DNA of 63,496 nt, the filler included, from Reclinomonas americana ATCC 50394 (taxonomy: Eukaryota), in assembly GCA_048213135.1 (NCBI GenBank). It is 6 parts of 3 records of this genome, joined end to end, with 100 filler letters (N's around TTAATTAATTAA, not from the genome) between each part and the next. Parts side by side here need not be neighbours in the genome. Positions count along the whole stretch, not along the records: positions 1 to 20,518 come from PS015117.1; positions 20,619 to 34,207 come from PS015117.1; positions 34,308 to 40,793 come from PS015117.1; positions 40,894 to 45,977 come from PS015118.1; positions 46,078 to 60,385 come from PS015118.1; positions 60,486 to 63,496 come from PS015121.1. One strand, 5' to 3'. The stretch's first letter is position 1. Each line of letters begins with the position of its first letter. Both the position numbers and the translations under genes were made by a program. Positions 251 to 63,496 of the stretch are shown piece after piece. Under the pieces are notes generated by a model. That model had not been told where the DNA came from. It searched no databases and saw only the letters and a program-made list of their open reading frames with translations.

Positions 251-3200
251 CGTCAGGCCTCCGACGCAGACACGCAAAAACTCGCCGTCGTCGAAAAGTC
301 ATTCGCCGAGCTGCAGGCCCAATGGTCACAGGTTCGTTTCGGCATGTCCCCGTTGTCCACCTGCGTCGTCGCCGCACTCACTGCATACAAACTCTCTTGT
401 AGCTATCGGAGGAAGCCACAAGCCTCCGTCACATGCACGACGAGCGGTGTAGAGAACTGACAAAGTCGCAAGAGGCCGTGGCATTGGTGCGCTTCCATTG
501 TCACCTTCCTGCGCGCGCGCGCGCGCACCCCTCCGCTCACTTGTTTGCCACTCAGGCCCAAGGAGTGGCGGGAGCTCTCCGGCGGCAGCACGAGGCGCAG
601 GTGGCAGAGGCCGCTAGATTACAAGCAGTGATCGATGAGGTGACAACTGCCGTGTGTGTGCATGCCTTTGCGCTGTGCAGTGCTCTGACACTGTTTGCAG
701 TTGCGGAAAGAGGCTGCAGATTCTGCTGGTTCTCGACAAGCACTGGAGCAGGTGCGTTACCTCGGCTTCCTTTAGCTCCTCGACCCTGTTTACTAATCCC
801 GGTACCACAGGCCAATGCTGACGTGCAGCGCCTCGACGCGCTGGTCCGGAAACACGAAGACACCATCGCCAGCCTCACCGATGCCATTGCCGACCGCGAC
901 GTAATGGTTGAACGGTCTGAGCCCGTACTTGCCTGAATCTCGGGAGCGCACCACTCATCTACCTTTCCCCAAATTAGTCGCGACGAGGAGGTTGAGCGGT
1001 TGAGCGATCGCGTGGAGAAACTCGAGCATCAGTGCAGTGAACTGCGCAGCGGTCGCGTGCAGCTCGACGAGCAATGCCGAGCGCTGCAGCGGCAAAACGC
1101 AATGCTCAACGAATCCGTGCAGACGGAACGTGCCGCTGGCGACAAGCAGGCGAGTCGCCTGGCGCAACTGGAGGTGCGGCTGCGGGAGACGCAGCGACAG
1201 TTGACCGACGAGGAGGATCGCAATCGGCAACTGCTACAAGAGATTCATCGGCTCAATGCGTCTGCATCGCCACTGGTGGCGCCCTCGCCCGTGGTGAGTG
1301 GACTCTTCTCTCGTTATCTGCGAAAGTCTATTCCTGTACTCATTCGCGCACACAGGAGTCCGTGTCAAGCAGCAATGGCGCTAGCAGCACCACCACTGCT
1401 ACCACCACCGCCGCCCCTGCACCGTCCACCGTCCAGCCTGTGTCTCTCGACTCGTCGTTTATCGTGGCGGGATTGGAGCAGAGCCTGGAGAGCGAGCGTG
1501 CACACACCAAAAGATTAACGGAGCGACTGTCGGCGGCTCGTGGCATTCAGGAGAAACTGGAAACGGCACTGGTGAATGCGCAGACGCGTGTCTCGCAACA
1601 GGTGGCCGAGTTGTCGGAGATGCAGTCGCGACTCGAGGACTTGGAGGAGGAGGTGCGCGAGATGCGGGAGGAGAACATTCTTCAGCGCACCACTGCCGAG
1701 GCGGCGGAAAGGGAGCGGTGGGCACTGGCCGGCGATTTGCGCTCCACCGCCGACGAGTTGGCGCGGTGGCAGAAGCAGAGCGATGCGCTGCTGAAGCGTG
1801 CACACGAAGCAGAGGCGCGCAGTTGCGAGGAGCAGACGCGGCTGGCACAGCTCGAGCAGGAGACGGCGCAATTGCGTGCGCAACTGGCGGTCGCTGGCGG
1901 ATCGCAGTCGGTGTCCTCCTCCGCTTTGTCGCCTCGAACCGCCGAAGATCACACGCTGGGACTGGAGGTGGAGTTGGCGGCGGTGACGGGCGGATTGCGG
2001 GCGGTGGAGATGCGCGCGCGACAGTTGGAGACCGAAATGGCGGCGCTGGTGGCGGCTCGCCATCGCGCCGAGACCGAGGCCGCCATGGCCAATGCGCGAG
2101 CTGCCGAACTCGACGTGGCGGTGTTGAGATACGAGACCGAGGCGCGGGCATCGCAGGAGCGCGCCAACAAGTCGGACGAGCTGGCCGCCGAGTTGAAGCA
2201 GACGGTGGGTGACTTGGAGGAGCAGCTGCGCATGTCGCGGTCGTCGGTGGCGGAGTTGGGTGATCAATTGGCCACGGCGTTGGATGCGGAGCGATCGGCG
2301 TATGCCAGTCGGGTGGAGGATTTGCGAGATGATATCGCCAAGGTGAATTTGCGGGAAGGGGAAAGGGAAAGAGAAGAAGGGGACAAGGAGAGATGACACT
2401 TGTTGTTTTCTGTCGTCAGTCAGAGAGCACTCTCAGTGGAGCAATTCAACTTGTGACTGAGCACAATGAGTCTGCAACCTTTTTCACGTCTTTTGTGGTG
2501 TACATTTCCAACGTCTTGAAGTCGACATTCTGATTCTTGTATCTCCTGCGTGTCTCTCAATTTCCTTCCGATCTGTCGCTCACCTGATCCGTTTTCAGTT
2601 TTAGTCTCTCACGGCCAGGATGCAGTGCTTTCGCTGTTGTTCTCTGCGCATTGATGTCCTTCTGTTGATCATGCCTTGGTCTCCTTGTACCTGTCCGTTT
2701 GCAGACCAGCCGTTTGTCTCTCATCCTTTCTTCTCTTGCTGTTGATCTCTGCGAATTGTTGTCCTTCTGTTGATCATTCCGTTGTCTACTTGTGCGCTTT
2801 TTTGTTAATTGCAGATCAGCCCTTTGCCTTTCATTCTTTCTTCTGTCGCACTGCTGCCACTACATGCTCTGTTGCTCGTTGCGGCCTTGTTGCTGATTTA
2901 GTTGACCAGCCATTTATGTCAGAAGAAAGGATGAGAGAAAAAGGGCTGGTTACAAACAACATGAAAGAGCTCACGAGATGGACAGACTCATGTTGCTCTG
3001 TTGTTCTCTGCGCCTTGATGTCCTTCTGTTGATCATGCCTTGGTCTCCTTGCAGCTGTCCATCTTTGTGAGCGCTTTCTTGTTAATTGTAGACCAGCCCT
3101 TTGCCTTTCATTTTTCTTCTGTCGCACTGCTGCCACTACATCCTCTGTCGTTCGTTGCGGCCTTGTTGCTGTTTGAGTTGACCAGCCATTTGTGTCCGCC

Positions 3201-4705: not shown

Positions 4706-7700
4706 TCATCGTCGATCGCCATCGCCCAGTTCGCTGACAGAAAACTCTTGGTCCCATGAGAGACCACCGCCACCGCCACCGCCGTTGCCCATCATGGGCG
4801 ATCTCTGCGGCATACCATGTCGTGAAAGCGACTGTGCTGGTGCCGGCGACATGGTAGACCTGGCCACTGAGATGCGCTCCTCCAGCGCCGTGTGGCGAAT
4901 CGACTGCTGCTTGGCAATCAACACTGCAAAACACCCACTGTCAGCGACACTTTCCATTCTCTTCACCCCACGGCGCGCAGCAAGGACGCAACAATGAGCC
5001 GCGTACTTGTCGCGCAAGATGCTCAGTGTCTCCCGGTTGTGTGCCAACGTCTGCTCCTCGTCGGCCACCGTCTGCTCCAACAGCACAATCGTGCCTCGCA
5101 ACTCGGCCAAGAATCTCTCCAGATCCAGCAAGTTGACTTCAACAATCTGCTTCGACGTCTCCAGCTCCGCCACGCGGATGCGATTGGTGACGGGCGACAT
5201 GGCCTCGTTGAAGCGGCGCAGCGGAGAGCGGAACGATTGCTGCATAATAGTGACAGTGAGAATGATGAATGCAGGCCTTAAAACTCATCTCTCCCTCGCT
5301 CCCTCGCTCCCTCCCTCTCTTTCTACCTCTCTCTGTCTCTCCCTCTCACCTCCAGACGATTGAGTTGCTCAATCTTTTGCGCCACCATCTCCTGCGTAGT
5401 GCGCGACTCCGCGATCGAGCTCTTCAGTCGCACCTGCAACTCGCGGAACGAGTCACGGTCGGCACGAGTGTGCTCGTTCTCCTGCAGCACACGGAGCTGC
5501 TCGTTCAGCGTGGCAAACCGCTTGGCCAGCTCCAGCGATTCTGCGAGAAGTCACTGTTGTGTTAAGAGATACGAAAAAAATAGGAACATCACGCGCCACA
5601 GCACTCACCACCCTCGCTCTCCGCCAGACGGTCCATGAGAGCTTGGTTTTCGGCCTTCAAGCGCGCCATCTGCGCCGACGACTCGATTTCCACACGCTCC
5701 AACTTTTGCGCCAACTCATACGATCGGGCGTCGTTCGCAGCGCGAATGGCACGTGCCGCTTCCACCTCGCTCGACGGCGAACCGGTGCCGGCAGACATGA
5801 ACGAAGAATCGGTCGACAGCTGTGCGCATGGAATTCAATGAGAAATAGACCCTTAATGATGAACCACACACACCACCAACCTCGCGCGATGTGATGCGCT
5901 CGATGCGCTCCGTGTGCCGGGAGAATGTCACGCCCAAGTTCTGCACCACCCGCTCGAGCTCCTCGACGCGTCGCAGGCGCTGTGCCGACAGCGCCGATGC
6001 ATCGCTCAGCCGCTCGCACGTGATGGAGTGCCGGTGTCGCTCATCGTCCAGCTTTGCCTGCAACTCCTTGATGAGATTCTTGTATCTCGTCAGATTGTCC
6101 TCGGCCTCCTCCACGCGCTTCTGCATCTCGCCAAGGCGATCGCGCAGCTGCCGCTCCGTCTGGTAGCTCTGCGCCAGCTGGTCGTTCATGCGCGCTCGTT
6201 CCAGTGCGCTGTTCTCGGCCGCACTGAGACGCGACTCGTACATGGTAATCGTCTCCTCCAGGTGCAACACTCGCTGCTGCTTGTCCTCCAGCAGTGCTTC
6301 GGCGCGACGGCGAGAGGCCGCCTCCTCGGCCAGGTCCACTTCGAGGGCGGCCACCCGGGCGCGGGAGCTCTGTGTGCCGGAAAGGGAGAAGGGTGAGGGA
6401 AAGGGAGAAGGGAGAGGGAAAGGGAGAAGGGTGAGGGAGGTGAGGGAAAGGGAAGGGGGGAGGGAGAGGGAGTGGAAGGAGAAGGTGAGAAGGAGAAGGG
6501 AAGGGATAGAGAGCGAGGGGAAAGGAGACAGAGAAAAGTGAGAATGAAGGGAAAGAGTAAGAGAGAAAGAGAGAGAGAGAGAGAAAGAGCAGTGATAGAA
6601 AGAGGGAGAGACGGGAACGCAAACGACCAGCAAGACGGACAGCATGATTGGCACAAAGAATGGCAGACAGACAGCGAGAGCGAGAGAGACATACACTGCT
6701 CGCACACCCTTCTCCCTTTCACCCTTGTCTCTCCTTTTCCCCTTTCCCCCTTCCCTTACCCTTCCCCCTTCCCCTCTCTTTCTCCCACTCCATACCTGCA
6801 CCACTGTCTCCAGCGAACTGGTGGCCGTGCTCAGGTCCGCCTCCCGACCGGCCCTCTCGTCCTGCAGATTGCGCTCCAGTGCCGCACAGCGTGCCCGCTG
6901 CGACGCCAGCTGCTCCTCCGCATCCGCCAAGCGCTGCCGCAACGCATCGAAATCACGCTGCAGCTGTTCCACCGTATCATTGCGCTGCGCCAGTGCCCGT
7001 CGCAGACTCACGACCTCGGCCGACGACGACTCCGCCAGGCTGTTGCGCTCGTCGAAGCGCTGCTCGAGGCGTGCGAACTCGTGGCGGGCGGTGGTGATCG
7101 ACACCTCCAGCTTGGTGCGCAGGGTGCGCTCCTCCGAAATCGTGCGTGTCAGCGTCTCGTAGTCATCATTAGCCGCTCCGAGTTGCTGCTCCAGGCGCTG
7201 GCGAGCCTCGGCCTCGCGAGTGAGCTCGCCGTACACATCTTCAGCACGCTTGCGCTGACTCTCTGCCATGTCGCGCCAGTCGGCCAACTGTGCCTCCAGC
7301 ACCTTGACGGTCGACCGTGAGCGTTCCAGCTCCTGCGTGGACGGGTGAGATGACATAACACGAAGGCGGGCAATAACTGAAGGATATCACAAATACAAAG
7401 GGCACGCTGCATCTATCTGTTCACCTCTTGCACCAGTGCTTTTCTCTCGCCATTTCTCTCCCAATCTCTCTCCCATTCTCTCTCTCTCTCTTGCTCTCTC
7501 TCTTTCTGTCTGTCTGTCTGTATATCTGTCAGTTTGACTGTCTGTCTCTTTTTTCTTCTCTCTCTCTCTCTGTCTTCTCTCTCTCTTCGTCTCTCGCTCT
7601 CTCTCTCTCTTCTACCTCTCCCTTCCCCCCCCCCCCTTTCCTTCCCCCCCTCTCCCTTTTCCACCCACTCACCTCCTGCACCACCAACAACCGCTGCGAA

Positions 7701-10700
7701 TCGCCGCGCAGCCGCTCCAATGCCGACCGGCTGTCATCCAGAATCTGCTCGAGTTCCTCATGTCGCGACCGCGAGTCGGCGATCATTGCGTCGGCATTGT
7801 CGGCACGGGCGCGCTGTGAGGCCAAGCTGGCCTCCAACTGCGCCGTCAGTGCCAGCAGCTCGTGTGCCTTGGTCTGCGATCGCTCCACACGCGTCTCGGC
7901 GTTGACACGCGCCATGCGCTCACTGCCGAGCGCCGCCTCGAGATCCTCCGCTGACTTGGAGAAGGAATCGGCCGCACGCCGCCACTCCTCCACATCCGAC
8001 TCGAGACTGCTGATACGAGTGCGTGCACTGCGCAGATCGCCAGTCAGCTGTCGAATGTCCTGATCACGCTGCGTCAGCAGCTCCTGCAGTTCGGTGATGC
8101 GGTTCAAGCGTTCCTGCACAAGGGCAAAAGGTAGATGAGATGTCTCCACACGACACGTGCGGAGCAGCAGTGCGCGTCAAACCTTGGCTGCCTCCTCCAG
8201 CGAGGTGATGCGCTGCGTTGTGGACCGCTCGTGCACCACGTCACGCTCCAATGTCGCCAGGCGCTCACGCAGCTCGTTGATCTGCACCTCCAATCGTTTC
8301 CTCTTGGAGGTCTCGGCCAGCAGGTCGCCCTCCAACTTGATGGCGCGAGTGCGCGACTGATCGGCATCGTCTCGCGCCTCGTTCACCTCCTCTGTCATGC
8401 GCTGCGTCACCTGCTCGCGCATGGTACATACGTGTTGCAGCTCGGTGACACGCTCCGTCAGGCGCGTGATACTGTGCGTCAGCTCGGTCTTTTGGTTGAC
8501 CAGCTGCCACAAAAACACACACACAGACAGTGTTGATGAGGGAATGAAGTACACGGAACATGAAGAATCGTGGAATTGCAAACCTCACGGTCCAGTCGTT
8601 CCTTGGTGGAATGCTCTCGCTCGTACAACTCTTGCGTGTCGGCGAGGGCGGACTCGAGTTGCTCGATGCGGTCACGCGCTTGCGACAGTTCGTCCTCCAC
8701 GGCCGAGATGCGCGAGGCGCGTGACTCGGCCGACGCTCGCCACACCTCCACCTCCTTCTCGCGTCCGGCGAGCGCCAATTGTGCCTCCGTCAGTGCACTC
8801 TGCAGCGTGGTGGCCTTCAGCTCCAACGACGAGTACTTGTCGCTTGCCTCGCGCAAGTCCTTTTCGAGCAGCTGTTGCGCTGTCTGCCGCTTCGACAGCT
8901 CGCTGTTGGCCGTGGCAAGTTCCTGAGCGAGACGACTGCGCTGGCGATTGGCCTCGCTGATTTGCCGATCCACGTCCTCCTGCTGCTGGCGACGCTCGAG
9001 TTGCAACGCATCCATGGCGGCACGCAGACGCGACAACTCCATGTGCTGCGAGGAGATTTGTTGGTCGCGATCACGCAGCACCTCCTCGTCCTGCGACATG
9101 GCCGAGGCGTGCGCGCGCAGAGCCTCGCGCTCGTGTGCCAGGTCTTCCTCCAGCTGCGGGGGTGGGTGGGAAGGAGAAGGTAAGGGTAAGGAGAAGGGAA
9201 GAGAAGGGGAAGGGAAAGGGAGGGGAAGGGAGGGAAAGGGAGGGGAGGGAAGGAGAAAATAAGCGGGATTTTAGGAAGGAGAAGGGAAGGGTAAGGAAGG
9301 AGAGAGGGATTGCGGCGAAGGACGGAGGGGAAGGAAAATGAACGACGAGGAAGAGAAACGAGTTGAAGGCGAATGTCGGGAAGATGAGGGCAGAAGGCAA
9401 AAGAAGCAGAAGGAAATGGGAAGGAGGGGATGACAGCAGAAGGAAAAGGTAGGGAAAGAAGGCGAGGAAGGAAACTAAGTCAAAGGAAAGAGTTGGGTAG
9501 AGACGTGATGCAGAGGAGATGAGGAAGGGGAGGAGATAAGGGAAAGACAGACAAACAAATAGACAGACAGACAGACAGACAGAAAGACACAGGCACACGT
9601 GCACACACACAAACACACACTCTCTCACACAAACACACACTCACACACACACACGCACGAGCGCACGGAGACATCGCGTGACCAATATTACAAACCTGCG
9701 CACACAAGCGATCGGCATGTTCTCTCCTGTCGCGCTCATCTGCCACCTGGCTCATGAATTCCACAGCCTCGTTCTCCAGCCGGTTCACACGCTCCTCCAG
9801 TTGCGAGCGCACCCGCTGCGACTGCGTGTACTTTTGCTGCTCCTGCGACAAATCCTGTTCAAGTTGCTTCAGCGCAGCGGATTGCTGAGCAAGAAGGGCC
9901 TGCTGGTCGGAGAGCTTCTGCCGACATCTGCATGGAGTGGAGATGAAGTGAGCATCATCATCAGCACGGCGGGAAGTGGAGACTCGGGAGAATCCTCACC
10001 GGGAGAGCTCCGTCGACAGCGACTCGCGTGCCAAGCGCGCCTCGTGCACACTGCTCTCCAACGATCCAATCTTCTGACGCGCCTCATCCACCGCAGCGTC
10101 CTTCTTTGCCAACAGCGTGCGCAAGTGGATGGATTCGTTCGACGACTGCATGTTGGTGGCGACGGCCTCGGACAGCTGCGCCTGCAACTGCGAGCTGCGC
10201 GCCGTCAACGTGTCCACCGCGGTCTGCCATTCCTTGGCCTCCCCACGCAGTGCTGCGCGAAGACAAGTGAGCTGTGCGTCTTGACGACATGCTACAACCA
10301 TTGAATAAAGACGCAACAGGCGATCTCGGTCTCCAGATCCTCCCGCTGCTCCTCTGACGCGCGCAGCTTTTGCTGCAACGACGAGAGCCGCTCCTCCGCT
10401 CCCTGGCGTTCCCGATCATTGGCATCGCGCACCGCCTGCAGCTGCTGCAAGAGGCTATCGCGCGCCTGCCGCAACGTCTCCAGATCGCGCGACTGTCGCG
10501 AGACTTGTTCCGTGAGATCTTGTTCCCGTGCGTCCCAGTCTTGCGACGACTGTGGCACACACAAACAAAACGTCAGGTCTCATAAACCTCTTCCCCAGCC
10601 TCCCTCCACCCAAGCACAAACCTCGTGCAACTCGCTGCGTGTGTGCTCGAGCGCCAATTGCAGGCTCTTGATGCGTTCCAGCGTGGATGCCGACGAGGTG

Positions 10701-13700
10701 TTGCGCTCGTGCTCCAGGGCCGCCTCGAGAGAGCGGCACAACGACTCGGCCGTCTCGCGCTTCCGCCTCTCCTCGCTCAGCGTGTCCTCCAGCGTGCGCG
10801 TATCTTCACGCGCAATCGACAACTTGGCGGTGATGTCGGCTCGATCCTGTTCCACGGCGTTGCGGTCGATTTGAACTTGTCGCAAGTCGGCAGTGATGCG
10901 CGACAGTTGATCCTGCAACTGCGTGAGGCGCAGTTGCTGCTCGCTGATGGCCTGACGAGCCTTGCTGAGCTCCGCTTGTGCGCCCTCCTTCTCCAGGCGC
11001 TCCTCCGCCAGCTCGTGCTCAGCCGTGGTGGCTCGCCGCCGGGTCTCCTCCAGCGCCACCTCGCGCTTGCTGACCAGGCCGCGCAAGTGAGCGTTCTCAG
11101 CTGTTAGGCGCTCCGTCGTGCTGCCGGCCTGACCCATGTGCGATTGCAGCAGGGAGACCTGCGAGCCGAGTTCGTCGGCACTCTGACGCCACTGCGTCAC
11201 CTCGTTGGTGAGGGCCAGCACACGCGTCTCTACATCGGCACGGTGCTGCTCGCTGGCCGTCAGTCGCTGCTCCAGAGCCGCAATGCGCTGCGACGACAGT
11301 GCGCGCTCCGACTCGAACCGACCCTCCAACTCTGTCAGCGCCGCCTGCAACTCGTCGCACTGCGAGCGCGCGACGTTGGCCTCACTGCGCGCCTTGGCAA
11401 GATCGGCATTGACGGCATTCAACGACTCCTTGGTGATCGACAGGCGGCCACTGGCCTGCGCGTGCTCCTGCTCCTCGGCCAGCAGCTTGAGTTCCAGCTC
11501 CTTGACGCGCGCGGCACGATCCTCGGCCACGCTGCGCAACCGAGCCACCTCCTTATTCAGTGCCTCGACCTGCTCGCCGGTCGACTTGGCCAGTCGCTGC
11601 GCCAGCGTCAGGTCCGAGTCGAGACGTGCGGCCTCGGCGGTGGCCTCGGAGAGCGCGCTACCGGCCGACGCCAGTTCCGCCTCCAGCATGGTGATCCGCG
11701 CGCGATGCTGCGCGGTCTCCGATTGCGCGTCAGCCAGCCGCGTCTGGTACTTGCTCAACTCGTTCGACACGCTCTGCTGCTCCAGACTGCGCTTGTCGAC
11801 AACGCCCTCCAGGTCGGCCAGGCGGGAGCTCAGCGATTGCACCTCGGATTCCAACTCGCCGACGCGGGTTTGCAGGGCGTTGCCGCGGCTGGTGGCGCGG
11901 GCCAGCGAACTCTGCGCAAAAGGGGAAGGAGGGGAAGAGGGAAAAGGGAGAAGAGGGAAGAGAGGTGAGAAGAGGGGGAGAAGACGAGGAGAAGGGGGGA
12001 AAGGGGGAGAAGGGGGGAGAAAAAAGGGAAGAAAGGAGAGAAAGGGGGAGAAGAGGAGAGAAGGAGGAAGGAGAGAGCATGTATGGACAATAACAAAAGA
12101 AGTCATGCTGAGGGTGGAAGAGGATACAGAGGTGAAAGAGAAGGACGAGGAACGCGAAAGATGTGAGCACAGACAGACAGAGACAAGCATGTGTAAATGG
12201 AGGACGGCGAGAGGAGAATGAGATCAAGATGAGTATGCCAACGCACCTGTGAGTTTGCCAGCGACCGCTGCAGCTCGGTGATTGACGACGCACGCTCGTC
12301 GGCCGTCACGCGATACACTTGCAGTTCGCGCTCCAGCGAGGCCACCTTGGCACGCAGTTCGGCGCGCTCAGCATCCAGTGCCGCCACACGCTCCTGCAGT
12401 GCCGCGGCGCGATCGACGGCCGCCGACGAGTCCGAATCGTGAGCGAGGCGCGCTTGCGCCAGCTCATCTTGCAGTTTGTCGCGCTGCGAGGTGACATCGG
12501 CCAACTCGGCATCGAGGGCGGCCACACGCTGTCGCAGCTCGCCCTCCGAAGCACGCGTGGCATTCAGCTGCTTGGTGCTGTCGGCCAAATGCGCCGACGT
12601 CTGCTGCTGCTCGTTGCGCGCCTGCGACAACTCCACACCCAGCGCGCGCACACGCTCCTTCAGCTCGTCGCGCTCACGCTGCGCCTTGTCACGCGCCGCT
12701 CCGTGCTCGACCAGTCGATTGTTGAGTGATGCCACGGCCGTCTCCAGCTCGGCCACGTGCGTCTCCGCACTCGCCAGCTTCTTCTCTAGTGCACCGACAG
12801 CTGCCTTGGCTGATCCGACTTCACGCTCCTGAGCGGCCTTCATCGACGCCAGCTCCTTGTCGGCATTGTCGCAGCGGATGGAAAGCTGCGTGAGATCGCG
12901 CTTGGCCGCCGCCAGAGTCTCGCGCGCAGCAGCCAGCTCTGTGGCCAGTTGGTCGCGCTCGCTCGTAGTGTCCGCGCTGTGATTCGCAAAAGAAATGAGA
13001 TGTATGGACACGGGAAGAGAGAAGGGAGAGAGAAGGGAGAGAGAGACAAGGAGAGAAGTCAGAGAAGGGAGAGAAGGAAGATAAGGGAGAGAAGGGAGAG
13101 AAGGGAGAGAAGGGAGAGAAGGGAGAGAACTAAAAAAGAGAGAGCGAGAGAGAGAGAGAGAGAGATTAGGAAAAACTAACAGCGAGAAAGACTGCAACAG
13201 AAAGACAGACAGTGAGACAGACAGTGAGGAAGACACATGAAGGAAGGCGGACAGAGAAACCGACGGGCAGAGTGAAAGACAGACAGAAAGGACAACAGAG
13301 GGACAAGGAGAGAAGGGGGAGGTGGGAGCGAAAGACTGAGAGAGAGAGAGAGGAAGAAAGAAAGAAAGAGAAATGGGGACAAAGGCAAGCGTGTCTCTCT
13401 CTCTCTCTCTGTGTCCCTCTGTCTCGCCTTCTCTCTTTTCTATCTTCATCTCTCTGTCTTTGTCTCCCTTCTCTCTTTCTCTCTCTCTCTTTCCATGTTT
13501 GCCTGCCTCTCTCTGACTCTGGGACAAAACCCTTCCCTTTACACACTCACCACTGCTGTGCCAAAGCCAATCGCTCTGCTCGCAAATCCTCCAACTCCTT
13601 GTGCAACTGCGTCGTCTTGTCGGTCTCCTTGCCGGCGCGCTTCTCGCTCTGCTCGAGCTGCATACGCAGTTTCTCGCACTGCAAGCACACGAGTGAGCAA

Positions 13701-60822: not shown

Positions 60823-62072
60823 CCGAGCTCGGCGCCGTGCTGTACGCCTACCGAAATGCTCGCCCGTACGACGTCAACAAGCACGCTGTGGTCACTGGCA
60901 AGTCGGTGGCGCAGGGTGGCCTGCGAGGCCACGACACCATTTTTGGCCGCGGTTTCCGCACGGGCATTGAGGAGTCGTGCCGCTTCAAGGCCATTCACGA
61001 CGTCAACTTTGCCAAGCAGTGGGGCAAGAGCTTCAGCTTCAACGGCCTGACGGTGACGCTGCAAGGTACGGAAATGAGAGAGAGAGAGAGTGTCTCAGTC
61101 CCTACGTTGTGCTCATTTCTCGTCGCCTGCATCAGGCTTCGGCTTTGTCGGCCGTCAGTTGGCGCTCGAAATCGCCGAGACTGGTGGTGTGGTGACGACG
61201 ATCATTGAGAAGAATTCGGCCGTGCACAGCCCGTCGGGAATCGACATCCCGGCGGCGATTGAGTACTTCAACAAGCGCGGCACTCTCGAGGGTCTGTCGG
61301 GCGCCCACCCCGTCTCGGAGGCAACAGCGTTCAGCAAGCCCGTCGACGTGTTCATCCCGGCGGCCAAGGAGAACGCCGTGAACGCCGACAATGTGCACCT
61401 CATTTCCTGCAAGGTTTGTGTGCTCTCTATTAGGGATGCTCCCTCGCATCTTCGTCGTGTCTCACTTCGCATCGTCTTGTCTTCAAGATCTACGCCGAGG
61501 CTGCCGTCAACCCGACGACCCCTGCCGCCGAAAAGTACCTGGAGGATCACAACGTGGTACGTAACCCCTTCTCTCTCTCTCTCTTTTCTCTCTGTTTCCT
61601 CCCCTTCTATATTCTCATGCACGCGCGCAGTTTGTTGTCCCCGACCTGTGCGTCGTGCCGTCGGCCGATTTCATTCACTACGTCGAGTGGCTGAAGGGCC
61701 TCACTCACATTCGCTACGGCCGCATGGTTCGCATCTCATCGCATCCCTTCTGTCCCTGTCCTCCTCATCTCACCCCTGTGCGCTCTCCCATCCCTGCAGG
61801 AGAAGCGCTACGAGGAGAATTTTAATGAGCGTTTCCTGTCGTACGTGGAGAGCATCTCGTCTCCGATTGAGAAGTCACTGCGCCGCGCCGCCGCCGAGGG
61901 TCCCAACGAGGTCACTCTGGTCACCTCGACGGTGATGGAGGGCATTCAGGACATTGCCCGCCAGGTGTCGGCCGCTGCCCGCGCCGAGAGCCTCAACTAC
62001 CGCACTGCTGCGCTGAAGATTGCCATTACGCGTATTGCCGGTGCCTACAAGAGCCTCGGCATCTTCCCGTAA
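60823..62072 (+). CDS. Glutamate dehydrogenase (ELFV family) C-terminal part with antenna-like segment, divergent active site, 5'-incomplete
   Basis: AVVTGKS..QGGL.G, LQGFGFVG, VDVFIPAAKE, PTTPAAE, VVPDL, YVEWLKGLTHIRYGRM, YRTAA. Five exons, stop TAA ends at 62072. Confidence 0.88.
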
Positions 62073-62325
62073 ACTGCGTGTTATGGTTATGCTGTTGTGG
62101 TGGTGATGATGATGGATCTGTGTTTGTTTCTCGGTCGCGTTTATTTTGATGGTCTGTGTTGTGTGTGTGTGTATGTGTTGGGTGCTTTTTTTTTTGGTCG
62201 TCATGTGTCTGTGTGTGGGTGTGAATGTCGAAACGAGTATTGTATTGCGGTGGTGGATATTCAAGTAATCACAACGGTGTACATGGGTGTTTTTTTCAAT
62301 TCTCAAGCCGGAGCCTTCTACCGCA

Positions 62326-62666
62326 CTAGAACATAATATTGATCTTCTCATTGTCGGCTCTGGTGGTCTGAATGGCGCGCTGGATCTCTTCACATGACGG
62401 GTGGCACGAACGCAAGTCGATTTCCGCCACACCAGTGGCCCGTGCGGCCGCGTCGATAATCTCCAGGAGACCGGCGAGACCAAGTGGGTTGTGTGCCAGC
62501 ACCACGCGGTCGCACGACGAGTCCGCAATGCCCACTGCCAGCGCCTGCGAGGGGGGATGGTGAGCAGAGCTGCACGACGACGACGCGCCCACGATCGCGA
62601 GGACAACTCACCTCGGCGCCACTTCGTGTGATGCGATTGTGTGACAGATCAATGTGCTTGAGGAGC
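62326..62666 (-). CDS. C-terminal exons of an RI-like leucine-rich-repeat protein
   Basis: LKHIDLSHNRIT..GAE|ALAVGI..VVLAHNPLG, with a GAG|GTGAGT intron and a stop at 62326. Confidence 0.7.
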
Positions 62667-62715
62667 NNNNNNNNNNNNNNNNNNNNNNNNNNNNNNNNNN
62701 NNNNNNNNNNNNNNN

Positions 62716-63496
62716 CCGAGGTCAAGATCGAGACCGATTGCACGGGCGGCTTGGCGTTCCGGAAAGCCGTGGAAAAGTTCGACATTGTGGTGTTTCCCGT
62801 CGATCGTGTGGTGGAGAGACTCGGCAACGTGACGCTCGATCTGCGACACTACTCACTGGGCGACAAGGGCGCGGAGGCACTGGCCGATGCGCTCTGCTTC
62901 AACACCACCGTGGAGAACTTTCACGTGCCCGGCAACTTTATCGGTCCCCCCGGTGGCAAGTCGCTGGCCAAGTCACTGATTGTTGCGTTGTGGGTGCCCG
63001 ACTCGTCATGCCTCGTTGTTCTCCTAGTTCGTCTCATGCGTGCGCAGACCAACACGTGGATTGTGGACGTGGATTTGTCGGATAACAATCTCGGCAGCAT
63101 GCGACTCGGCTCCAACTCGCAGACGTTTGGCGATGTGTTTGCCGCGATGCTGCGCGAGAATTCCACCATTACGCGCTTGAACTTGTCGAAGAACAAGCTG
63201 TCTGACGATGACGTGGTGCCGATTGTGGAGGCGGAGAGCGATCGGCAGCTGATTCGCGAAATGGATCTGTCGCACAACAGCATGCAGGAGAGCGGTGGTG
63301 TGGCGATTGGTCGCATGATTGCCACACACATCAACCTGGAGATATTGCACCTGAAGTGGAACACGCTGCGCGATTTCGGCTGCACGGCCATCACACAGAG
63401 CATGGCCGACTCGCACCTGCACAAGCTGGATTTGTCGTGGACTGGCCTGTCGGATGGTGCCGCCAGTGCTCTCGGTGCCTGTCTCGGCCGCACCAC
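62716..63496 (+). CDS. Internal exons of an RI-like leucine-rich-repeat protein
   Basis: VTLDLRHYSLGDKGAEALA, VDVDLSDNNLG, TRLNLSKNKLSD, EMDLSHNSM, LHLKWNTL, KLDLSWTGL. One intron at 62982-63047. Confidence 0.85.

Follow-up and report, generated by a model that had tools for sequence, protein, structure and literature searches.

Introduction

At ordinary 5' splice sites, the last exon base (position -1) and intron positions +4 to +6 compensate for each other, a relation captured in donor dependency models, and in most eukaryotes many exons end in a base other than G. Donors of the GUNNGU type are known from Cryptococcus and other intron-rich fungi. At atypical human 5' splice sites, U1 small nuclear RNA (snRNA) can pair in a register shifted by one base (+1) (Roca and Krainer, 2009, as summarised in PMC4856993); this summary puts all noncanonical registers together at 1.5-2.1% of human 5' splice sites (PMC4856993). 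Here, we describe a donor rule in a single 63-kb window from Reclinomonas americana ATCC 50394 (the whole stretch analysed, 63,496 nucleotides (nt), filler included; assembly GCA_048213135.1), in which 7 genes contain, next to ordinary 5' splice sites, a second form whose motif is shifted by one base and which accompanies exons that do not end in G.

Donor form follows the last exon base

About 70-75% of the introns in these genes begin as G/GUNNGU (the slash marks the exon-intron boundary) and about 25-30% as H/GUUGCGU (H being A, C or T), with a few GUUGAGU and one GUUUUGU. The initial annotation had listed 22 donors of the second, shifted form, all of which read H/GTTGCG, H/GTTGAG or H/GTTTTG on the strand given for them, and its estimate of ~25% fits the 22-23 found among 90 modelled introns. 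In these 90 introns, a G at -1 is followed by GTNNG in 53 cases, by GTTNNG (without +5 G) in none and by other sequences in 8; after A, C or T the corresponding numbers are 3, 23 and 3. When only the 68 introns with flanking exons of at least 45 nt each are kept, the counts become 44, 0 and 4 after G and 0, 20 and 0 after H (Fisher p ~1e-17).

The 22 introns removed by this filter have tiny flanking exons, bridge genes, lie in 29-33.6 kb or touch the window ends; the shifted donors 23582 and 39134 and the doubtful 36019 are among them. All six non-conforming H introns, each of low confidence, were also removed: three are T/GTGTGT within (GT)n runs, and three lie beside exons of 13 nt or less or at window ends. 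Canonical-class exceptions lacking +5 G in the filtered set are at 2343, 4078, 14936 and 16489. The filtered set was produced by a finder already trained on both classes, and a run with a flat donor score served as the neutral control.

The finder, a dynamic programming procedure with codon log-odds that admits GT..AG introns only, was run with three donor models: a position-independent matrix, a flat score under which any GT is equal, and a two-class mixture trained on the data. Flat-score runs that lacked strand masks merged all predictions into giant genes on the two strands and were set aside. With the flat score (76-81 introns at three penalties), H/GTG[AC]G was chosen 0 times and G/GTG[AC]G 16-18 times, H/GTTG[AC]G 13 times and G/GTTG[AC]G 0 times (association table with rows of 15 and 19-21, and of 1-2 and 41-43; p 5e-5 to 7e-6), so that the earlier failure to find any GTGCG or GTGAG donor after A, C or T is reproduced even here. 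The position-independent model (76 introns) recovered 15 of the 22 sites and missed 7; its donors include H/GTTGCG (12), A/GTTGAG (2), H/GTTTTG (2), G/GTGAG (14) and G/GTGCG (9), and no H/GTGCG, H/GTGAG or G/GTTGCG was picked. The absence of H/GTGCGT is not built in, because this matrix scores it above H/GTTGCG. The two-class model (89 introns) recovered 20 of the 22 sites and added one shifted donor at 700(+), outside the range covered by the initial annotation; it missed 23582, which is supported by homology, and 39143, a tandem alternative 9 nt from 39134. An unsupervised two-component mixture, started at random on 75 donors, split them into a 74% class (-1 G 0.82, +5 G 0.86, +6 T 0.64) and a 26% class (-1 non-G 0.94, +3 T 0.77, +4 G 0.82, +5 C 0.77, +6 G 0.86, +7 T 0.77), with a gain in the Bayesian information criterion of +29.6.

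Unused copies of the motifs point the same way. On the sense strand, G/GTG[CA]GT is a donor 16 times and lies unused in exons 5 times, and H/GTG[CA]GT is a donor 0 times and lies unused in exons 10 times; therefore, the canonical motif depends on a G at -1 in these genes. The GTTGCG hexamer is not rare (56 copies on both strands of the window), and GTTNNG is found at 74 of 2994 unused H-preceded GTs of the same genes. The shifted motif alone is insufficient for splicing, because an unspliced copy at 36950 sits inside a conserved oxidase exon. For 22 of 23 shifted donors there is no frame-compatible G/GTNNG donor within 45 nt, and the sole exception (21289) is rejected by homology. The two-form donor rule is thus real at the sequence level and independent of the donor model. 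Its description as obligatory whenever -1 is not G has support only within this 63 kb (7 genes, ~19 independent positions after merging of paralogous sites).

Homology and paralogy of the junctions

The exact predicted junctions at ten shifted sites are fixed by homology (five) or paralogy (five). For the former, every frame-keeping GT/GC..AG alternative within 75 nt of a junction was scored under a profile of homologues. With the PWP2 profile, made from 34 of 43 homologues (those of 750-1000 residues), the modelled junction ranks top at 7 of 9 junctions, all three shifted donors included: 23582 (960.2 bits vs 955.0 for the next, a difference of 5.2 bits; top of 101 options, with the junction peptide GGVY-RQGN restored), 23899 (960.2 vs 945.3, 14.9 bits; top of 17 options) and 24568 (960.2 vs 954.6, 5.6 bits; top of 20, with intron retention outside the best five). 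Junctions 6 and 8, of the canonical class and in poorly conserved loops, are not top-scoring and were excluded from the validated set. The VPS11 profile was built from 34 hand-picked longer homologues (737-1212 residues) among 150 matches listed, obtained by a full HMMER search after a word-index search with the 82-residue exon gave no match. Here the modelled junction is top at 7 of 7 junctions, including 21001 (386.6 bits vs 381.0, 5.6 bits; top of 85 frame-keeping alternatives) and 21289 (386.6 vs 379.6, 7.0 bits; top of 29 alternatives), where the sole canonical-type alternative, G/GTGGGAG, scores ~370 bits.

A GC-AG reading, HGTT/GCG with the donor 3 bases downstream, is the runner-up at 4 of the 5 homology-tested sites, 5.2-7.0 bits below the GT donor, and falls outside the best five alternatives at 23899; it was rejected. 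Sliding both intron ends by one base would alter the mRNA, because the exon following a shifted intron does not begin with G.

Paralogy comes from repeated modules of a giant gene (39046-60433). Its shifted introns 45440, 46894 and 48570 occupy equivalent module positions, 41883 and 43878 form a second paralogous pair, and in both groups the spliced peptides align gap-free. Splicing at 41883 keeps the TG-x-F motif common to all four paralogous modules; the canonical-looking donor 41868 would delete this motif and was rejected in favour of 41883. Retention of 46894 would add a 22-residue F/Y/L-rich peptide that is missing from the paralogous modules. The modules back all five predicted junctions, including the in-frame 46894 and the choice of 41883. 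As the five paralogous introns are not independent events, the shifted sites come to ~19 independent positions in 7 genes.

These tests bear on the idea that the rule is an artefact of gene modelling, or the footprint of intron insertion by a repeat or introner family with no recognition rule behind it. The idea draws on the predicted nature of every junction and on the paralogous origin of some giant-gene introns. It is opposed by the presence of the rule under a flat donor score, the ten junctions fixed by homology or paralogy, the spread of the sites over 7 genes and the lack of shared intron sequence beyond the signals: an all-against-all BLAST of the 90 introns gave 12 low-complexity pairs, none of them between two short shifted-class introns. 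Introner or repeat-derived introns were rejected on the same comparison, in which the intron bodies are unrelated, and we consider an artefact or footprint highly improbable.

Proposed recognition of one element in one register

Moved by one base, the two classes resemble each other. At 49 canonical donors, -2 is A 27, C 8, G 3 and T 11 times, +3 is G 25, T 16 and A 6 times, +4 is C 18, A 15 and T 12 times, +5 is G 44 times and +6 is T 31 times. At 22 shifted donors, -1 is A 10, T 9, C 3 and G 0 times, followed by +3 T (22), +4 G (21), +5 C (18), +6 G (22) and +7 T (18). The shifted -1 and canonical -2 distributions are similar (chi-square p 0.32), and G is missing at shifted -1 because this position corresponds to canonical -2, where G is scarce. 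The T at shifted +7 likewise resembles canonical +6. The log-likelihood of the shifted class is -240.7 under the canonical profile moved one base, vs -449.7 under the unmoved profile and -302.0 under the exon background. Codon phases 1 or 2 account for 12 of 16 unambiguous shifted introns vs 12 of 38 canonical ones (p 0.006), an excess to be expected if the shifted form serves positions at which the protein does not allow a G as the last exon base.

The 3' signals are alike in both classes, with a CAG acceptor and a CTSAY branch motif ~17-20 nt upstream (median position -17.5 in the shifted class, -20 in the canonical class), as is the length spread, with a mode of 60-80 nt. A U12-type reading was rejected, RTATCCTT having 3 matches in the window and none at a shifted donor. 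Long introns are rich in simple and tandem repeats and short introns (57-83 nt) lack any; intron length is therefore bimodal.

Both donor forms could be one element, (A)-G-[G/U]-U-N-N-G-U, placed one base deeper in the intron wherever a G is not possible as the last exon base; the initial annotation had proposed an element G-[G/T]-T-x-x-G cut after or before its first G, which at the sequence level holds across this window. Its pairing with the 5' end of U1 would be the same at every site: C9 would face the first G, A7 the U, and C4 and A3 the distal GU; the second position, opposite C8, would be either G (paired) or U (mismatched). U6, U5 and Prp8 would then cut before the only GU of the element, i.e., after the first G in GGU and before the first G in GUU. 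The pair between this first G and C9 seems essential here, which would account for the absence of H/GUGAGU-type donors. U6 pairs with the distal GU in other eukaryotes and, if it does so here, would have to tolerate one extra nucleotide in the shifted class.

With a standard U1 5' end assumed, the invariant letters fall opposite C9, A7, C4 and A3, and 21 of 22 shifted donors gain base pairs when the canonical register is replaced by +1, although the organism's own U1 end may differ. A cut at the GU one base upstream of the nominal junction of the shifted register agrees with the top-ranked predicted junctions at 21001, 21289, 23582, 23899 and 24568. A single element read in one register, probably by U1, and cut at its only GU is the likeliest mechanism, to which we give a probability of about one half; we infer the reader and the placement of the cut from a rule that is itself observed directly.

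Several points weigh against this mechanism. With a standard U1, the predicted GUUGCGU duplex is weak and interrupted, at +0.5 to -4.0 kcal/mol, vs -4 to -12.7 for most canonical donors. GC occupies the middle two positions of 18 of 22 shifted vs 10 of 49 canonical donors (p 2e-6), where a standard U1 would favour GA or AA, and the T at -1 (9 of 22) is not accounted for by pairing with U10. Ten of the 22 sites lie in one gene, five of these in two paralogous groups. At the kinesin site 19318, the modelled donor is the best GT yet third of 23, with two GC options 1.4 and 6.5 bits higher, and the comparison is not decisive. Finally, every junction is predicted: homology or paralogy anchors ten, and the others are anchored by reading frame and coding potential. 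The shifted pairing of U1 suggested in the initial annotation is thus consistent with the data in that the donors pair better at +1, and a standard U1 leaves the GCG preference unexplained; given this preference, something other than a standard U1 may read the element. The further suggestion that an unusual snRNA is implied does not strictly follow, since the standard human U1 can use the shifted register, but the same preference leaves room for it.

Both the weak duplex and the GC preference would be explained by a U1 whose 5' end has changed so as to pair with GC, or by a second U1-like RNA. Taken further, GUUGCGU would form a consensus of its own, recognised in the ordinary register by a dedicated second U1-like snRNA or by a single altered U1, and would resemble a shifted site partly by coincidence. 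Compared with the canonical class, the shifted class is far more rigid throughout +3 to +7, its GC middle and its poor pairing with standard U1 are both accommodated, and no exon base would be needed, as for U11 and minor introns. By contrast, a separate RNA has no reason to copy the canonical -2 in the exon base, down to the missing G, and the 3' signals of the two classes are identical. To our knowledge, there is no dedicated second U1-like RNA for such donors, and a separate consensus appears unlikely, if worth keeping in view. An Rfam search of the window returned 0 matches at gathering score; with E up to 1 it returned 29 matches, all far below gathering and with no spliceosomal snRNA among them. 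Nearly all of these weak matches are microRNA models on low-complexity or palindromic stretches (e.g., 46121-46203 and 13301-13507, both strands, where many unrelated models match and the sequence does not look like RNA genes).

Recognition need not be driven by U1: a protein of the U1C or Prp8 type, or U6/U5, could read G-N-U-N-N-G-U and tolerate two GU-to-GU spacings. Such a reader would suit the loosely constrained middle of the canonical class, the weak predicted pairing of the shifted class with standard U1 and the extra nucleotide that U6, if it pairs with the distal GU, would have to accept in that class; it is made improbable by the coincidence of the conserved positions with U1 C9, A7, C4 and A3, and the data point to no particular factor. 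Alternatively, U1 could stay in its ordinary register (G+1 with C8, U with A7) with one of the +2/+3 Us bulged. Bulge +2/+3 and +3 registers have been validated in a few dozen human donors (PMC4856993), and the pair count would equal that of the shifted register. However, a bulge leaves C9 free for the last exon base and so predicts a G at -1, yet 0 of 22 donors carry one (p 0.0003 vs exon G content), and G/GTTG[CA]G occurs 5 times in sense exons without ever being a donor, which makes a bulged U a very poor candidate.

For the genome as a whole, we can offer a tentative picture, on the doubtful side of even: a two-register code with an obligatory first-G pair, no donors of the H/GUGAGU type and at least a quarter of introns off-register, read by a U1 fitted to GCG (e.g., the complement of GGUGCGU) or by a dedicated second U1-like snRNA.

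Gene layout and site list

The window has ~55% G+C, numerous N runs and a eukaryotic character. Its gene layout (Table 1) comes from a Pfam run covering 150 of 259 open frames (100 codons or longer), plus coding-potential strips. The best protein identities (PWP2 48%, kinesin 37-50%, VPS11 exon 53%) reveal no close relative among the collections searched, and a metagenome scan for relatives gave 8 loci of 31-43% identity, too distant to be used as a second genome.

Table 1. Introns with shifted donors, reference sites and gene layout of the window. Both models: position-independent and two-class.
Feature	Position	Strand	Gene or region	Support or remark
A/GTTGCGG intron, 111 nt	700..810	+	coiled-coil gene	two-class model only; no frame-compatible G/GTNNG within 45 nt
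T/GTTGCGT intron, 69 nt	4924..4992	-	kinesin/coiled-coil gene	both models; no canonical alternative within 45 nt
T/GTTGCGT intron, 65 nt	10253..10317	-	kinesin/coiled-coil gene	both models; no canonical alternative within 45 nt
C/GTTGCGT intron, 78 nt	15863..15940	-	kinesin/coiled-coil gene	both models; no canonical alternative within 45 nt
A/GTTGCGT intron, 659 nt	18660..19318	-	within kinesin motor domain	both models
T/GTTGCGT intron, 64 nt	21001..21064	+	VPS11	homologue profile
C/GTTGCGT intron, 282 nt	21289..21570	+	VPS11	homologue profile
T/GTTGCGT intron, 229 nt	23582..23810	+	PWP2	homologue profile
A/GTTGAGT intron, 574 nt, holds N run 24003-24022	23899..24472	+	PWP2	homologue profile
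A/GTTGCGC intron, 63 nt, in frame, stop-free	24568..24630	+	PWP2	homologue profile
A/GTTGCGC intron, 67 nt	33981..34047	-	helical-repeat gene, extent uncertain	both models; no canonical alternative within 45 nt
A/GTTGAGTGT donor, acceptor uncertain (N run 39808-40000 inside)	39134..40160	+		two-class model; filtered out
A/GTTGCGG intron, 656 nt	41883..42538	+	giant gene	two-class model; paralogous modules
T/GTTGCGT intron, 74 nt	43878..43951	+	giant gene	both models; paralogous position to 41883
T/GTTGCGT intron, 64 nt	45440..45503	+	giant gene	both models; paralogous to 46894 and 48570
C/GTTGCGT intron, 421 nt, contains N runs	45941..46361	+	giant gene	both models; no canonical alternative within 45 nt
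A/GTTGCGTGA intron, 79 nt	46600..46678	+	giant gene	two-class model; no canonical alternative within 45 nt
T/GTTGCGT intron, 66 nt, in frame, stop-free	46894..46959	+	giant gene	two-class model; paralogous modules
A/GTTGAGT intron, 65 nt	47541..47605	+	giant gene	both models; no frame-keeping alternative within 45 nt
T/GTTGCGT intron, 64 nt	48570..48633	+	giant gene	both models; paralogous position; no canonical alternative within 45 nt
A/GTTTTGT intron, 61 nt	48758..48818	+	giant gene	both models; no canonical alternative within 45 nt
T/GTTGCGT intron, 66 nt	62982..63047	+	leucine-rich-repeat gene	both models; no canonical alternative within 45 nt
Canonical G/GTGCGC intron	21140..21196	+	VPS11	first among frame-keeping alternatives, homologue profile
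Other homology-confirmed canonical introns	21819-21890, 22002-22721, 22785-22843, 22891-22954, 23372-23556, 24873-25400, 26380-26452, 27132-28327			
Unspliced C/GTTGCGTGG (GTTGCGT) in exon	36944-36950	-	FAD/BBE oxidase	conserved FAD-binding FW-A-L-R-GGG stretch
Unspliced G/GTTGCGTGC in exon	14714-14720	-	kinesin coiled coil	
Coiled-coil gene	1-4.6 kb	+		Pfam + coding potential
Kinesin with ~3000-residue coiled coil	4.7-20.2 kb	-		Pfam + coding potential
VPS11, C-terminal part	20.9-23.0 kb	+		Pfam + coding potential
PWP2, WD-repeat processome protein	23.35-29 kb	+		Pfam + coding potential
Stretch without settled gene models	29-35 kb			
FAD/BBE oxidase, intron-free	36.0-38.0 kb	-		Pfam + coding potential
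Giant Thr/Ala/Ser/Gly-rich gene, final exon ~11.3 kb	39-60.4 kb	+		coding potential
Glutamate dehydrogenase + leucine-rich-repeat gene	60.4-63.5 kb	+		Pfam + coding potential

A tandem donor copy, T/GTTGAGTGA at 39143, lies 9 nt from GTTGAGTGT and in frame with it (39134-39151, +); the two are a possible alternative 5' splice-site pair. At 46600, the upstream frame is open as far as the donor, which itself contains a TGA. The giant gene (+) has at least ~5700 codons and encodes a repetitive protein in which no Pfam family was found in the pieces scanned. Its 5' third carries ~18 introns and modules repeating the motif GF-x-F-x-x-D-x-x-TG-x-F; the 3' two-thirds (49022-60433) form one exon with an N run (50186-51080) inside, and BLAST of the intron-rich part against this 11-kb exon gave no match.

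VPS11 and the 5' end of the kinesin gene face each other head to head, and only the C-terminal ~270 residues of VPS11 are in the window. The VPS11 gene starts directly after the N runs 20519-20562 and 20575-20618, leaving no room for the N-terminal ~700 residues of its homologues, which suggests an assembly gap or misjoin. Between 29012 and 35900, gene models overlap on both strands among several N runs; the helical-repeat exons at 33500-34170 (-) are the sole convincing models there, and the 3' end of PWP2 is not settled. Repeats within long introns include ~60-120-nt tandem units in VPS11 intron 5 (22140-22620), (GT)n and (GA)n runs in PWP2 introns (23640-23670; 23910-24002) and a long (CCCCTT)n run in a kinesin intron (16650-16760).

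The practical consequence is that shifted introns are misplaced or overlooked by gene finders built on one donor model; our position-independent model missed 7 of 22. A single-donor-matrix finder reads through the in-frame, stop-free introns 24568-24630 and 46894-46959, adding 21-22 spurious residues, and annotations of this genome may carry such read-through insertions.

Comparison with known splice-site systems

Nearly all work on the choice of U1 register and the later fixation of the cut has dealt with rare human exceptions. An organism with a quarter of its introns offset under a strict exon-base rule would, if this is true, be a natural system that separates recognition from the choice of the cleavage site; should the snRNA itself prove to be altered, the near-universal U1 5' end would have a rare exception. 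A full-text literature search turned up no account of a donor code that uses two registers this systematically.

As in the compensation between -1 and +4 to +6, a stronger intronic part makes up for a missing -1 G. In ordinary compensating systems, however, H/GTRAGT is common and the register is fixed, whereas here H/GTG[AC]G is found 0 times vs 16-26 times with G, and an extra T stands at +3. The canonical class, with its G/GTNNGT donors of free middle, introns of 57-83 nt and CTSAY branch motif, is like that of Cryptococcus-type fungi, for which we know of no report of a second, offset donor class. The shifted class recalls U12-type introns and their lineage-specific expansions in being a second class whose rigid 5' motif lies wholly within the intron and makes no demand on the exon; unlike them, its motif is not RTATCCTT, and its branch motif and acceptor are those of the main class.

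The human +1 shifted register, as presented in PMC4856993, is a rare exception proven with suppressor U1s; here the offset form makes up 22-23 of 90 introns and is known from sequence alone. It also differs in being coupled one-to-one to the last exon base and in the dominance of GCG, which a standard U1 does not favour. In both systems, the intron starts with GU, the bases that follow match the consensus moved by one position, and the cut falls, in our predicted junctions as in the human sites, one base upstream of where the U1 register by itself would place it.

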